IMG/VR virus record: IMGVR_UViG_2740892439_000007
Span: 1-30,004 of that record
Length of the DNA stretch: 30,004 bases
From: a virus
Taxonomy: Duplodnaviria; Heunggongvirae; Uroviricota; Caudoviricetes
Reading direction: 5' to 3' (one strand)
The first letter of the stretch is position 1. Every line of letters starts with the position of its first letter. The notes beneath the pieces were generated by a model. The model ran no database searches. It saw nothing but the letters and a program-made list of their open reading frames with translations, and was not told the DNA's origin. Both the position numbers and the translations under genes were made by a program. Below, in pieces: positions 3,851-21,438 of this stretch.

Positions 3851-3869
3851 AGGCCATAAGTTGTGGCCT
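3851..3869 (+). terminator. Hairpin (aggcca taagttg tggcct), weak terminator candidate
   Basis: 6-bp stem after the stop of CDS 3439-3819; T-rich tract only 8 nt further downstream. Confidence 0.35.
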
Positions 3870-3870
3870 T

Positions 3871-3883
3871 AAATAAATTGTTT
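3871..3883. promoter_or_regulatory. Operator-like palindrome AAATAA-A-TTGTTT (1 mismatch), within a 30-bp block also found at 10736
   Basis: aaattgttttctaccttttcttatttg here versus caatttgttttctaccttttgttgattg at 10738. Confidence 0.5.
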
Positions 3884-3957
3884 TCTACCTTTTCTTATTT
3901 GTGAAAATAAACCAGCACTTGGTAGTGCTTATGTAACAGCAAAGAAGAGAAAAACAC

Positions 3958-14874: not shown

Positions 14875-14903
14875 AGCCCCGCCATCCTTACGGGGCTTTT
14901 TTG
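14875..14903 (+). terminator. Rho-independent terminator (gccccg ... cggggc + TTTTTT)
   Basis: GC stem plus T6 after the stop of CDS 14529-14840. Confidence 0.75.
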
Positions 14904-15981: not shown

Positions 15982-16464
15982 ATGAATTTTATCGCTACTG
16001 TAAACGCACCCGCACATGGCAATATCGCTGTAACGTTCTCTGACATTGAAAAACGAGTACTTGGTGCATGGCGCGACAATGAGACGGTAGAACTGTCAGC
16101 ACAAGAAAAATGCATTATTGCACGCGACATCATTGGCAATCGTCGTTACTCGCGGGTATTTGAGAAAGCGTATGTGGTAAATTCTGGATTCGGAACGTTC
16201 GTCTTTCCGGTGCGCTCCGGGCGATTCTGCCAGTCCAAGCTGATTGAGTTCGCTACGCAGATTTCTGTCTGGATTAAAACTCAATCGTCGTTCAAATTTT
16301 CCGACGATGAAGCAGTATCGCAGGGGATGCGAATCGCCAACAATGCGATTAAATGCAAAAACATTACGTATACCGCTGGCGTTGACACATGGAAACTGTT
16401 TTGCGCTAACTTTATGCTGAATGTATACGCAAGCAACCGCATCCACATCCTTGATGGCGTGTAA
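15982..16464 (+). CDS. Hypothetical protein (160 aa)
   Basis: ATG 21 nt after the operator; terminator follows. Confidence 0.65.
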   Translation: MNFIATVNAPAHGNIAVTFSDIEKRVLGAWRDNETVELSAQEKCIIARDIIGNRRYSRVFEKAYVVNSGFGTFVFPVRSGRFCQSKLIEFATQISVWIKTQSSFKFSDDEAVSQGMRIANNAIKCKNITYTAGVDTWKLFCANFMLNVYASNRIHILDGV

Positions 16465-16471
16465 CTGAGAA

Positions 16472-16496
16472 GAGGGCCAGAAACGGCCCTTTCTCT
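16472..16496 (+). terminator. Terminator candidate (gggcc agaaac ggccc + TTTCTCT)
   Basis: Hairpin 8 nt after the stop of CDS 15982-16464. Confidence 0.55.
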
Positions 16497-16513
16497 ATAG
16501 CCACCAGCTGCCG

Positions 16514-16629
16514 CAGGGAAATTTTCAGAAACGGCGAGGAACGTATTCATGAGCCGACGGGAAACGGCCAGGATTTTTTCGGGAAACGGCTGCATTCGCC
16601 TTTATGTAGAAAAACATCGGGAAGCTGGT
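16514..16629 (+). repeat. Second iteron array (GGGAAACGGC-type, about five units, two of them exactly 22 bp apart at 16559 and 16581)
   Basis: Same core as the 13548-13700 array. Confidence 0.6.
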
Positions 16630-16717
16630 GGAATCCAACCAGCGGTTGTCGGACAGGTGAGCGGGGAAAATCATGATGACTTTCGTCGCCTGAGACATCC
16701 AGATTTCTTTCGTAGCG

Positions 16718-16735
16718 TAATCACATATGTGATTA
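16718..16735. promoter_or_regulatory. Perfect 18-bp palindrome TAATCACATATGTGATTA
   Basis: Exact dyad; a further TGTGATTATGTGA...TCAC repeat lies immediately downstream. Confidence 0.4.
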
Positions 16736-16878
16736 AGTGGTGTGATTATGTGAAAAATCACGCGCACATAATACGCGAGCGGATACGGAACAAAACAAAA
16801 TGCCGATCCGCGCCGACAAATAAACGCGGATCATAAAGCAAGACTAAAAGCCAATGATTAACCATACTCTATAGCGCA

Positions 16879-17085
16879 ATATAACGCGTTTTAAGCGCGT
16901 TAATGTGTTAAGTAATGGGTATGTACTGGTAAGGATATAAAAGCGCGTCTATGGCGTTATTTTGGCGCTTATTTTTATGTTGTTGGAGTGAGTTAAAGAC
17001 AATAAAAAACGCGCTAATGATGGCGCGTTATGGTGGGAGTATTGGAAACGAAAAAAGCGCCCATAGTGGGCGCTCGATTTTATTT
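16879..17085. repeat. Array of four related GC-core hairpins, each preceded by an A-run (about 16879, 16936, 17002, 17057)
   Basis: Inverted repeats taacgcg/cgcgtta, aacgcgc/gcgcgtt and gcgccca/tgggcgc are exact; the second unit is imperfect; the last is followed by a T-rich tract. Confidence 0.5.
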
Positions 17086-17150
17086 GTGTAAACTGATTTT
17101 AAATCCCATTTCTACAAACGCTTTTAACATTAAAAATATATCAGCGTCGT

Positions 17151-17309
17151 TCACGTCTGCTTTTTTCGCTCCTGGTCGCTCAATAAGTCAATTTTGCGCG
17201 TCGTTTCATCTATAAGCTCGACTGAGCGCCCAGCGTAACCAGCGATCCCAGCGATGCGATTAACAAAATATTCATTGCGCACGTTAACGCCAGCGATAAG
17301 AATAAACAT
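17151..17309 (-). CDS. Small protein candidate (52 aa, hydrophobic N-terminus MFILIAGV, charged C-terminus)
   Basis: ATG with AAGGAG 7 nt upstream; bracketed by two identical hairpins (gcgcccatagtgggcgc at 17057 and 17327); the track's longer N-terminus overlaps the upstream terminator. Confidence 0.3.
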   Translation of the reverse strand: MFILIAGVNVRNEYFVNRIAGIAGYAGRSVELIDETTRKIDLLSDQERKKQT

Positions 17310-17322
17310 GATTAAGCTCCTT

Positions 17323-17343
17323 AAAAGCGCCCATAGTGGGCGC
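17323..17343 (-). terminator. Rho-independent terminator for CDS 17357-18016 (gcgccca tag tgggcgc plus T-run on the minus strand)
   Basis: Hairpin 14 nt after the stop, followed by TTTT in minus-strand sense. Confidence 0.7.
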
Positions 17344-17356
17344 AAGATTCCATTAA

Positions 17357-18016
17357 TTACGCTTTGAAAGCATCAGCCAGATAGTTATAGAAATCATTTT
17401 TAATAAAGCGATATTGCTGCGTACCAGCTTTTGCGCTTCCCATTCCTTTGACTTTCTCAACAAGTCCAAGACGTTCGCAAAGATTGATCAACTGGTTGGC
17501 TTGAGTATAGCCAGCGTCCAATTTAATTTCGCACGCTTTTTTAGCTTCATTCATTAAATCGAAAACAGCGCCATTGGTGAACGTGTCGATCTCGTCGTTA
17601 ATCATATCGATTAAAGCGAATACACGAGATCCTGACATATCAGCGACGGAATAAACACATTTACCAGCTTTAATGGATTTAACCAGATAAACCAGTTTTT
17701 CCAGTGAATAACTATTAGTCATAGCATCACGGAAAAATACTTCTGGCGCTTGTTTACTTGCTTTAATCGCATAGTAGAAAACAGAGCATAATTTTTCGTC
17801 TTCTACTGCGTTTACGACGTTGTTGATGAAGTAAGCAAGTTTAGTGGTCGCAGCTTGCATATTTGCTTTGTCTGCTTTAGTGTGCGTACCATTTTTATAA
17901 TGTTCGTTATATGTTTGAGTTGCCAGATCTGCTTTTTCGCGCAGCTCGTCGGATACAATAGATGCAGCTTCAATGATGGACTTTTTAGAAATGATAATGT
18001 TAGCCATGATGGACAT
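17357..18016 (-). CDS. Hypothetical protein (219 aa), visibly AT-rich coding sequence
   Basis: Long ORF with its own terminator; AT-richness is a visual impression, not a count. Confidence 0.7.
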   Translation of the reverse strand: MSIMANIIISKKSIIEAASIVSDELREKADLATQTYNEHYKNGTHTKADKANMQAATTKLAYFINNVVNAVEDEKLCSVFYYAIKASKQAPEVFFRDAMTNSYSLEKLVYLVKSIKAGKCVYSVADMSGSRVFALIDMINDEIDTFTNGAVFDLMNEAKKACEIKLDAGYTQANQLINLCERLGLVEKVKGMGSAKAGTQQYRFIKNDFYNYLADAFKA

Positions 18017-18303
18017 CCTTACGAAAAATTAAAATGAATTTATTTTTTACTGTCGTTAGCCAGCTCGCTTTCGACGAGTTCAATTATCGATACGTGAAAA
18101 AGGATTGCAAGTATTTTTTTTAAATTTTTTTGCAGGGGTGAAAGTCCTAGAAATAAAAGCGAGATCGTCGAAGGTGTTCCCTAAATAAATAATCAATTCG
18201 GACTTTTAACCTTATATATTTATACAGAGTGGCATTGAATGAGTTTTAAATGAATGGCATGTAAAATAATAACCGGGCTTAGCCGGTTATTACCCTTATA
18301 GAT

Positions 18304-18828
18304 TTAAAATGGAAGGATTCGTTCAACCCAATCGAAGAAAACAAGTATTTTTCTGCCGTCTTCTAACTTAAGAGTGACCTGGCAAGCATCAACGCCTCTT
18401 GACACCCCTTCAATTTCACGACCGTCTGCCATGTAGACCCTTATAGATTGGTCGTTTTGATAAGCCTTGCGACATATCGCAAAAAAGTCACGGCGTGATG
18501 GCTGATTGTCAACATAGTCTGGATGTATTGTTAGCCTACCTTTGAACTCGCGAGCAATGCCATCGATTACACCTGATTCAATTGTGCTAATGCGCTCAAG
18601 TGGGAGTCTTATACGATTTTCTTTATCATATGGAAGCGGGCATAAATCTAGCTTATTGCGGGAAGGCATTGTCCCCTGAACGTACATGCAAAACACCTGA
18701 CCGTCTTCAAGCGTGACTCTTACAGGAATGTTGTTCTTCCGCCAGAACATAAGTATGTTTTCAGCATGTTCGTAGTCTCGCGGCCAGACTTCAGCCGGTA
18801 TGCCGTAGGTGATGTCCGATGTTCTCAT
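18304..18828 (-). CDS. Tandem Rof (YaeO)-like domain protein (174 aa)
   Basis: Two internal repeats each resembling E. coli Rof as recalled (DY...LEDG ... ExRxRLxxIS/T): VRVTLEDGQVF...ENRIRLPLERISTI and IRVYMADGREI...VTLKLEDGRKILVFFDWVERI. Confidence 0.55.
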   Translation of the reverse strand: MRTSDITYGIPAEVWPRDYEHAENILMFWRKNNIPVRVTLEDGQVFCMYVQGTMPSRNKLDLCPLPYDKENRIRLPLERISTIESGVIDGIAREFKGRLTIHPDYVDNQPSRRDFFAICRKAYQNDQSIRVYMADGREIEGVSRGVDACQVTLKLEDGRKILVFFDWVERILPF

Positions 18829-19879: not shown

Positions 19880-21438
19880 CTAATCTCGTTTCAGAACTCC
19901 AAAATCGAATGCGCCATCAATAGGCAATACACCTTCTGCAAAGCCAGGTGTGGTGTCGATGATGTGTTTTCGCTCATAAGAGTGAGACAACAGGTATTTG
20001 TTGCTAATGTCAATGAAATCAGTGATAAAACACACGTTTGCCTGATTCTTCTTGGCTCGTAAGCCACGACCGACACGCTGCCTCATTTCAACTTCTGCTT
20101 TCCCACCACCAGCCAGAATGACCGCACCAACGCTTGGCACATCAACACCGACATCCAGAATAGTCGAGCCTATTAAAACATCTATTTCGCCAGACGCTAA
20201 ACTGTTCAGCTTTGCTTGCCTTGTCGCCTGGTTTGATTCCCCATAGATGAAGTCAACTCTAAGGCCGGACTCCTTCATCATCTCCATCAGGATTTGCCCG
20301 TGGCGTTTAAGACGAACCAGAGTCATGCAATTGAGAGAATGTTGCTTATAGAGCAATGCTTCGCGCACAATGGCCTCGTTACGTCCCAAATTATACACGA
20401 TCCCCAACTGATAAGCCTTTTGGTAGGCTGTGCTCATACCTACTCTAAAATTGAGGTGTTTGTTGGCAAGTTCGGCTTGATTCTGGCCTCGTCTGGCTTG
20501 TAGGCAACTTTATGATAAAGGAAGTATGGTTTTGCCAGAATGCCTCTATCAATCAGGTACTTTTCCGTGACTTTTATTTCAATTCGCCCGGCCACTGCCA
20601 TCAGGCGCATGTTGGCTTCCGTCGAATCCTTCATGAACGGCGTGGCTGTAAGCGCCAGACGATAGTCTGCGTTCACACATAATCTGGCGATGTCATAGAA
20701 ATTAGAGCCTGAAGACTCATGCGCCTCTTCCAGAATAAGAAGAGAGACACTTGAAAGGAAGCGTTTCACCAACTCCCGACGTTTGAGGTGGTAGCTTTTC
20801 TTATCTGGTGTTGCATCGCGTGGTGGTTCTTCGAGGAAACTTGCAAGAGTTTGAACTGTAGCGACGTTGATATGTCGTGATACCTGGAACTCACCCGAGC
20901 CAATTACTCCAACCTTTTGGTCCTTTAACCACGGTTCGCCATTTTCGGCGCGGTAGTCGATGGATCTCTGGAAGTTTTCGGCCATTTGAAACATCAGAAC
21001 AGAGCGGGTTGTTAAAAATAATGTCATTCGACCGATACGTGCAGCTGCTTTGCAGGCAACGTTAGATTTCCCGCCACCAGTAGCGATCTGCGCAATCATC
21101 ATTCCCTCTCGAACCAGTGTTTCTACTGTCTGATCTTGGTACGCATAATCAGGGTTGTATGGAAATGGGTTAACCGCCGGATTTGGTTTACCCAGCGCCG
21201 GGGCTTTGTCTTTGCGGATATGAACACATTTGATGCCCGCCTTGTTCAAATTAGCCGCCACGGGCTTGGCAAAGCCAGCAGGGAACGAGTTTTTGCTCCA
21301 GTTGAACATTGTGCTTGTGCCCTTCCAGTCGCCAGCCTCGACTTCGTAGCTCAACATTTGCTGCACCAGTTGCTTTACCTTGTCATCTGCGCCAGAAATA
21401 AGCGCATTTACTGCGTTAGATACAATCCGAACAGTCAT
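19880..21438 (-). pseudogene. SF2 DExH-type helicase interrupted by a -1 frameshift (N-terminal part 20440-21438, C-terminal part 19880-20437)
   Basis: Motifs I (ATGGGKS), II (LILEEAHE) and III (LTATP) lie in the upstream ORF and motif VI (QRVGRGLR) in the downstream ORF; the frames change at a T4 run (plus-strand AAAA near 20447). Confidence 0.75.

Follow-up and report, generated by a model that had tools for sequence, protein, structure and literature searches.

Two identical 17-bp palindromes that flank a small gene on an SSU5-like phage-plasmid are probably Rho-independent terminator hairpins of a leftward transcription unit (a gene for a 219-aa protein, then the small gene), and in related elements the same hairpins border a slot of variable content. 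The DNA analyzed here (referred to as the window) comprises positions 1 to 30,004 of IMG/VR virus record IMGVR_UViG_2740892439_000007. Its region 16400-18100 matched Escherichia phage Cyrano (pLF82) at 96.5% identity, which identifies the window as part of an SSU5-like phage-plasmid; identity was 95–97% to further E. coli elements and ∼80% to Klebsiella phages and Salmonella phage SSU5. SSU5-like phage-plasmids are common in Enterobacteriaceae, and resistance genes have been reported on some members. In PLSDB, the region was present on 461 plasmids from Escherichia, Klebsiella, Yersinia pestis, Salmonella, Enterobacter, and Citrobacter, including Y. pestis plasmids of pMT1 size (95–137 kb) and pHCM2 of S. 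Typhi CT18. Among 5426 complete E. coli genomes, 237 carried it, each time on a plasmid of ∼100–120 kb; no chromosomal place with the hairpin-bounded unit was found in these genomes, and the median was one place per carrying genome. The palindromes lie in a gap of ∼900 bp between two convergent genes, encoding a 160-aa protein (plus strand) and the 219-aa protein (minus strand). Relatives of this locus were gathered via the 219-aa protein, which gave 83 loci with 74 distinct intergenic sequences; because a profile search for remoter relatives of the protein mostly returned the same loci, clade-specific queries were used instead. In the direction of leftward transcription, the features are as follows:

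17357..18016, minus strand: gene for the 219-aa protein (phrog_1513, function not assigned by PHROG), first gene of the leftward unit.
17327..17343, minus strand: hairpin T1, GCGCCCA-CUA-UGGGCGC, followed by just U4 and then the Shine-Dalgarno sequence; fold −14.8 kcal/mol; left cassette junction.
17317..17322, minus strand: Shine-Dalgarno sequence AAGGAG, 7 nt before the ATG at 17309-17307; the TTTTAAGGAGC junction recurs in relatives.
17080..17309, minus strand: family A small gene (phrog_1585, PHROG match 1.3e-38), 76 aa in Cyrano, with a broken frame in the window.
17044..17075, minus strand: hairpin T2, the T1 palindrome lengthened to 9 bp, then UUUUUUCGUUUCC; right cassette junction.
17003..17029, minus strand: hairpin T3, AACGCGC-loop-GCGCGUU followed by U6; 17008-17029 folds at −10.2 kcal/mol (z −4.6).
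16941..16970, minus strand: hairpin T4, AAGCGC/GCGCUU with an 18-nt loop; −6.2 kcal/mol (z −1.6); weak here.
16883..16901, minus strand: hairpin T5, AACGCG-N7-CGCGUU, no U-tract; −8.1 kcal/mol (z −1.4); weak and lineage-specific.
16804..16833, minus strand: hairpin T6, GAUCCGCG-N12-CGCGGAUC, then GGCAUUUUGUUUUG; −18.8 kcal/mol (z −3.4); found by the terminator scan.

The palindrome, GCGCCCATAGTGGGCGC, which a preceding inspection of the letters alone (the sequence-only reading) had noticed at 17057 and 17327, was indeed present exactly twice in the 30 kb (17057-17073 and 17327-17343; 0.05 expected), a count reached by none of 100 shuffles; no further copy with up to three mismatches was found there. 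The identity of the two sites extends to 21 nt (AAAAGCGCCCATAGTGGGCGC; 17053-17073 = 17323-17343) and amounts to 88% over 32 nt. Both the 219-aa gene and the small gene have the minus strand as their sense strand, and on it, the A-runs seen at the hairpins on the plus strand are T-runs (U-tracts in the RNA) 3′ of the hairpins. On the plus strand, no conserved T-run 3′ of the hairpins was found. T1 begins 13 nt past the stop codon of the 219-aa gene and T2 6 nt past that of the full-length small gene. T1, T2, and T3 thus combine a stable GC-rich stem-loop with a position 3′ of a gene in the direction of transcription, and the U-tract of an intrinsic terminator is complete in T2 and T3 (U6) and partial in T1 (copies with one to four Ts). 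T2 itself (17056-17074, −15.5 kcal/mol, z −3.6) was flagged, with its U6 tail on the minus strand, by the terminator scan. That scan found nine terminator-like sites within 16000-18400 versus 2.7 ± 1.7 expected; elsewhere in the window, such sites occurred at chance density (18 versus 15.4 and 14 versus 11.8).

Because the terminator form is confined to the minus strand, the hairpins of the array most likely end the leftward block, which converges on the rightward 160-aa gene. Among the roles that the sequence-only reading had considered for the array, a terminator cascade is, thus, the one favored by sequence. The four A-run hairpins on which it was based all exist; they are not equivalent, their strengths ranging from −15.5 to −6.2 kcal/mol, and T5 has no U tail. 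Across 27 diverse sequences, pairing was kept in 100% for the T2 stem, 96% for T3, 84% of cells for T4, and 70% of cells for T5. In the SSU5 clade, T4 is a better 7-bp hairpin (AAACGCG-N9-CGCGUUU), and T6 is terminator-like on the minus strand solely in the E. coli clade. The T5 region, in which locus L052 (about 3860-3900) and other loci of the SSU5 clade have the unit GCGTTTTAGCGCG in tandem (three copies in L052), thus also expands and contracts by slippage.

The tail of each palindrome copy depended on its position. The last or only copy was followed by five to seven Ts in 72 of the 74 distinct relatives, usually as TTTTTTCGTTTCC, and by one C before six Ts in the other two. The copy ahead of a cassette was followed by a run of one to four Ts, then by AAGGA(G) and a start codon (64 distinct relatives). 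Two rare variants, a U·G wobble in the first hairpin of L098 and a G·U variant at the closing pair of T2 (pair 6-25), pair solely as RNA on the transcribed strand. A scan for σ70-like promoters detected none between the 219-aa gene and the small ORF (open reading frame), and none within 16400-18080; within 16000-18400, the scan gave a single promoter-like site, upstream of the 219-aa gene. The spacing from T1 to the ATG of the small gene is just 17 nt. T1 is, judging from this arrangement, probably a leaky terminator or attenuator. In a published RNA-seq data set of strain LF82, the Cyrano orthologues of the 219-aa gene (CYRAN_113) and of the small gene (CYRAN_112) were both at the detection floor in LB (lysogeny broth), whereas in macrophages at 6 h, log2 values were 5.67/5.49 and 4.87/4.35, respectively (PMC9928086 S1 Table). 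As gene-level values, both rose together, and that of the small gene was about half that of the upstream gene, a pattern compatible with co-transcription and attenuation, though not decisive.

The sequence-only reading had described the bracketed frame as a 52-aa ORF with a strong ribosome-binding site and a hydrophobic N-terminus. The ORF (17151-17309, minus strand) and its AAGGAG 7 nt upstream are present; it is, however, the truncated form of a longer conserved gene, namely, the family A gene minus one base. At 17161-17166, the window has six Ts where Cyrano and PhiR41_1 have seven (alignment including SSU5), and with the seventh T restored, the frame is open to the TAA at 17080-17082, giving 76 aa. 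In all 82 other loci examined, the small gene encodes at least 73 aa. Family A homologues (81 were found) are mostly 73–79 aa long, and they include recurrent frameshift variants with six or eight As in the same run. Databases contain truncated products of both the A6 type (ending in ERKKQT) and the A8 type (ending in ERKKSRRE) from several backgrounds, which makes this homopolymer a place where errors or mutations recur. A programmed frameshift at the A7 run was considered and rejected as unlikely, as the A-run is absent from A2 and from the "NDIERSDIG" variants of family A. Length also varies at a 9-bp repeat encoding IAG (17225-17255), whose copy number differs among relatives (products of 70–79 aa).

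Compared with relatives, the window contains five single-base homopolymer deletions (13404, 14896, 16609, 17160, and 20475). Four of them (13404, 16609, 17160, and 20475) were seen against both Cyrano and PhiR41_1; at 14896, six Ts face seven in Cyrano and a 2-nt gap appears against PhiR41_1. The deletions at 17160 and 20475 break conserved ORFs, the family A gene and a helicase gene, respectively. The 52-aa truncation probably reflects an error in sequencing or else a mutation of very recent date, and the five deletions together suggest sequencing error or error-prone assembly, or else a decaying element. In annotation, a frameshifted 76-aa gene should be called in place of the 52-aa ORF, and further homopolymer frameshifts have to be reckoned with in the window.

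An AlphaFold2 model of family A (23 homologues; predicted local distance difference test [pLDDT] 71) has the order β-α-β-β-α-α-β, at moderate confidence. A Foldseek search of this model against PDB gave weak ferredoxin-like matches alone, none with E ≤ 0.001. Family A is accordingly modeled, with the same moderate confidence, as a small soluble α/β protein, in which the hydrophobic N-terminus forms the first β-strand, not a membrane anchor. Neither family A nor the second family found at this position (family B, below) had a match in Pfam, NCBIfam, or PADLOC, and PHROGs assign both to families of unknown function only.

The suggestion that the palindromes delimit a small cassette could be sharpened: in the relatives, they border a variable slot of zero, one, or two small genes. 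Gaps of ∼660 bp contain no small gene and one palindrome, and gaps of 855–960 bp contain one small gene and two palindromes. With two small genes, the gap is either ∼1170 bp long, with three palindromes (L024 and L026), or ∼1125 bp long, with palindromes at both outer ends alone. Hence, where each gene is bracketed, the number of palindromes is that of the genes plus one. The occupants belong to family A (phrog_1585, 73–79 aa; subtypes A1 and A2 at about 46–51% identity) or family B (phrog_6145, 67 aa; including a 38%-identical form "C" from a deeper clade). Family B is represented in SSU5 by SSU5_119 (L003 6123-6326), which both SSU5 and PHROGs label "MIT family metal ion transporter (CorA)". 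Searches of Pfam, NCBIfam, and PADLOC found no domain behind this label, the protein being short and helical, and the name looks like a propagated annotation artefact.

Every backbone clade, as defined by the 219-aa protein, holds several slot configurations, and the slot has therefore changed repeatedly. In individual pairs, the breakpoints of this mosaic coincide with the hairpins. Up to T1, L038 and L003 (SSU5) are near-identical; their slot contents are unrelated, and identity resumes at T2. Between the window and L048, identity is 97–100% from halfway through the cassette, across T2, to the left arm of T3, and the two diverge inside the T3 loop. Adding one further "ORF + palindrome" unit to the window gives L024. 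Local duplication of the hairpin by itself also occurs: L144 carries three exact copies at a period of 44 bp, and at several loci, two copies are separated by 30 nt. Wherever matches in viral contigs carried these slot genes, they sat at the same locus. About 10 viral contigs carry the exact 17-mer without the neighboring genes, in unrelated contexts, which by estimate is about the number expected by chance. In two of these unrelated contigs (L169, 520-600, and L094), the 17-mer lies just upstream of AGGAG and ATG, and ahead of it, a sister palindrome, CTGCCCATAGTGGGCAG, occupies exactly the 17-nt spacer from GTGACA to TATGCTATAAT. By its sequence, this arrangement resembles a promoter-early stem-loop (PeSL), as known from T4-like phages, in a different phage.

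The stem of the palindrome is nearly frozen. Its arms (GCGCCCA/TGGGCGC) were found in 138 of 140 copies, and the same 17-mer is shared by clades whose 219-aa proteins are 48–61%, 160-aa proteins 30–33%, and bracketed ORFs 38% identical. Over such divergence, an ordinary terminator is expected to drift via compensatory changes. The loop of T1 and T2 is mostly CTA; 15 of 138 copies, which come from different clades and from both positions, have its exact reverse complement, TAG. The T3 loop is likewise inverted in some relatives (ATTGTT/AACAAT and ATCATT/AATGAT), with the arms staying perfect. Template switching at short inverted repeats characteristically leaves an exactly inverted loop between perfect arms, and it also homogenizes the arms (PMC8794818, PMC8604942). 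Such switching would account for the perfect pairing, not for the constancy of the sequence between lineages. The latter could reflect strong selection on a near-optimal terminator, frequent recombination between lineages at the hairpins, or recognition by a protein.

Based on these features, the following mode of action is proposed. T2, with its U6, and its diverged sister T3 would stop leftward transcription, with the weaker relics T4 to T6 behind them. T1 would have given up most of its U-tract to the ribosome-binding site of the small gene and would terminate only partially, so that transcripts from the upstream promoter would run through it into the small gene, which lacks a promoter. The repeated 17–21 bp would at the same time allow recombination or replication slippage between copies, within one genome or between co-infecting relatives. 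Such an exchange would delete, add, or swap a unit of "ribosome-binding site + small ORF + hairpin" and thereby create a variable slot, of which the 52-aa ORF would be the family A occupant.

Several observations weigh against this proposal. The covariation score of the stems was not above that of shuffles (27 sequences), because the stems are invariant. The 17-bp palindrome is conserved far beyond what a terminator needs, which suggests an additional, sequence-specific role. Most two-gene loci (B+A) have no hairpin between the genes; therefore, some genes are not hairpin-bounded units in their own right. When pairs were scanned for their largest step in identity, most breakpoints fell elsewhere in the gap, not at T1/T2, because an indel-rich stretch near T6 dominates this measure, and the placement of breakpoints at the hairpins therefore rests on individual cases. 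Finally, the flanking coding homology alone could mediate the swaps.

The frozen stem is also what recommends the view that the palindrome serves in the first place as a binding site in double-stranded DNA for a dimeric protein (an operator, a roadblock, or a recombination site), with the terminator look being secondary or part of a dual function. The 7-N3-7 layout with almost invariant arms and a free central triplet is that of many operators, the sequence stays identical across lineages in which all surroundings have diverged, and in an unrelated phage contig, the 17-mer and its sister palindrome flank a −10 box. One candidate binder is the 219-aa protein, as its C-terminal ∼80 residues are winged-helix-like in a structure model; a sequence search of this protein against PDB gave no match. 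However, a primary site in double-stranded DNA does not explain why every copy has a one-sided T-run on the transcribed strand, with a length that tracks the last versus the pre-cassette position, nor why the wobble variants pair as RNA only and on that strand. Furthermore, the copies follow stop codons and do not lie at promoters, and neither a copy nor a near-copy was found at the operon promoter or elsewhere in the 30 kb. A primary role of this kind is, thus, considered unlikely. Quite unlikely, too, is that the palindrome is the site at which, for example, the winged-helix-like 219-aa protein regulates read-through or promotes hairpin exchange; if it were a protein recognition site, it would represent a dedicated, protein-assisted cassette exchange site of SSU5-like phage-plasmids, including pMT1 and pHCM2. 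That the bracketed unit is itself a mobile element of a hairpin-recognizing recombinase or transposase (an integron-like cassette or a relic of the IS200/IS605 type) would agree with the identical hairpins at both ends of a unit of ∼250–300 bp, with its presence/absence polymorphism, with the empty site keeping exactly one hairpin, and with different gene families lying between the same ends. It is nevertheless very unlikely, as the unit was never found outside this one slot, be it in E. coli genomes (no chromosomal place, median one per genome) or in the viral contigs carrying slot genes. In addition, 17 bp is far below the size of attC, no adjacent integrase or Y1 transposase was found in annotations or by Pfam, and the ends are identical and in direct orientation, unlike the left and right ends of IS200/IS605 elements.

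The sequence-only reading had also considered an origin with hairpin sites and a membrane peptide. As part of a replication origin, the hairpins would be single-strand initiation or cruciform sites next to iterons and the helicase gene. The region between 16470 and 16880 does contain conserved GAAACGG repeats, the palindrome TAATCACATATGTGATTA, and the DnaA-box-like TTTTTCACA, the helicase gene is ∼2.5 kb away, and the repeated inversion of loops indicates extrusion or template switching of the hairpins as DNA. Nothing was found, however, in support of an origin role of the hairpins themselves: their tails are the strand-specific tails of terminators, no replication initiator gene was found in the window, the published repA of Cyrano was not located in it, and cassette insertions of 250–500 bp between the hairpins are tolerated, which would be unexpected inside an origin. 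Such a function of the array, thus, has very little probability. Even less can be said for a toxic membrane peptide (a type I toxin or holin-like protein) insulated by hairpins, which is extremely unlikely. The ORF is short, has a strong ribosome-binding site, and starts with the hydrophobic MFILIAGV; the native protein of the relatives, however, has 73–79 aa, of which just these eight starting residues are hydrophobic and are modeled as a β-strand of a soluble domain. Moreover, no promoter for an antisense RNA was found in the scan of 16000-18400, no match was obtained in Pfam, NCBIfam, or PADLOC, and frameshifted copies are common in databases. Termination by the palindromes, with read-through at T1, remains the preferred reading.

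The surroundings of the array contain the following further features:

15982-16464, plus strand: gene for the 160-aa protein (phrog_1641).
16467..16495, plus strand: terminator of this convergent gene; fold −17.7 kcal/mol (z −4.3); its loop holds one GAAACGG repeat.
16912..16926, GTAATGGGTATGTAC on the plus strand and GTACATACCCATTAC on the minus strand: 15-nt block between T4 and T5, from the conservation profile and variant table.

Four GAAACGG repeats lie in the non-coding stretch 16470-16800 (at about 16481, 16529, 16561, and 16582), and a fifth repeat of this type, GGAAACGA, adjoins T2 at 17044. They are kept in distant relatives whose flanking proteins share only 30–60% identity. The same stretch contains TAATCACATATGTGATTA as a perfect 18-bp palindrome at 16720-16737, with TGTGATTATGTG close by. 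For this conserved non-coding DNA left of the hairpins, possible roles are a protein-binding array, a regulatory site, an RNA, or an origin. A long, conserved structured RNA across 16744-17079 was considered and set aside as less likely: the single-sequence fold z-score was good on both strands, but RNAalifold, run on 27 diverse sequences, returned implausible long-range pairs and a covariation term of just −1.05. The 15-nt block is nearly invariant in 72 distinct related sequences, its flanks being variable; a promoter scan and an Rfam search gave no match to it. No Rfam family reached its gathering score in the window (best E value 0.19 for 16300-18400, at chance level and well below gathering), and a search for genes of transfer RNA (tRNA) and transfer-messenger RNA (tmRNA) in the window found none. 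The DEAD/ResIII helicase gene (19880-21438, minus strand) is split into two ORFs, 20440-21438 with the N-terminal domains and 19880-20437 with Helicase_C; in Cyrano and PhiR41_1, it is one gene of 519 aa, and the split is caused by the one-base deletion at 20475. The 174-aa protein encoded at 18304-18828 (minus strand) matched Pfam Flag1_repress (FljA, repressor of phase-1 flagellin) at 5e-81, with weak Hfq/LSM-like matches at residues 123–165. It could be a FljA-like post-transcriptional repressor on a phage-plasmid that affects flagellin expression of the host.

The terminator-bounded slot may serve as a typing marker for SSU5-like phage-plasmids and as a natural, transcriptionally insulated site for inserting cargo. 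The combination of a frozen stem with recurrent exact loop inversions is usable for studying hairpin-driven mutation in natural populations.

The locus was compared with several known systems. The attC site of an integron cassette is an imperfect palindrome of ∼57–141 bp, whereas the repeat here has 17 bp with a perfect 7-bp stem and a 3-nt loop, and no integrase is present among the neighboring genes. Repetitive extragenic palindromic (REP) sequences and bacterial interspersed mosaic elements (BIME) are dispersed, whereas the unit is plasmid-borne, absent from E. coli chromosomes, and found at a median of one place. A type I toxin is contradicted by the native length, the α/β model, and the missing antisense promoter; of an iteron-type origin, repeats are present (16470-16600), and no initiator gene was identified in the window. 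The locus resembles a phage moron (Juhala et al 2000; discussed in PMC2839356) in that a terminator follows a small accessory gene that only some relatives have. Unlike a moron, the gene lacks its own promoter, expression of CYRAN_112 does not exceed background in an LB-grown lysogen (PMC9928086 S1 Table), and conserved flanking repeats are foreign to the moron concept. With template switching at quasi-palindromes, the locus shares the exchange of loops (of T1/T2 and T3) for their exact reverse complement, seen here in scattered lineages; the described cases concern ribosomal RNA, microRNA, and yeast coding inverted repeats (PMC8794818, PMC8604942), here the inverted repeats are putative terminators of a phage-plasmid. 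The hairpins have the GC-rich stem of 7–9 bp, the short loop, and the 3′ U-tract right after a stop codon of canonical intrinsic terminators, and, as in tandem fail-safe terminators, several stand in series between convergent genes. They differ from canonical terminators in that the stem is frozen over long divergence, one copy has exchanged its U-tract for a ribosome-binding site, and the copies are cassette boundaries.

By analogy, the locus is best described as intrinsic terminators doubling as cassette linkers, and the closest described system is that of the PeSL cassettes of T4-like phages. [quoted passage not shown] The defining σ70 early promoter is missing from the repeat described here, which has 17–21 bp compared with ∼100 bp in PeSLs and occupies one locus (two copies in 30 kb) instead of dozens of sites in hyperplastic regions, and the host element is a temperate phage-plasmid. 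In both systems, however, a terminator stem-loop is followed by the Shine-Dalgarno sequence and ATG of the next gene (here, T1 followed by UUUU-AAGGAG-N7-AUG), and the repeats flank genes that differ among relatives. The presence/absence logic is also shared, with one palindrome for no cassette, two for one cassette, and, for two cassettes, three in L024 and L026 or just the outer pair in most B+A loci. Regulatory repeats as recombination linkers, an idea that stems from virulent T4-like phages, would then extend to temperate phage-plasmids.

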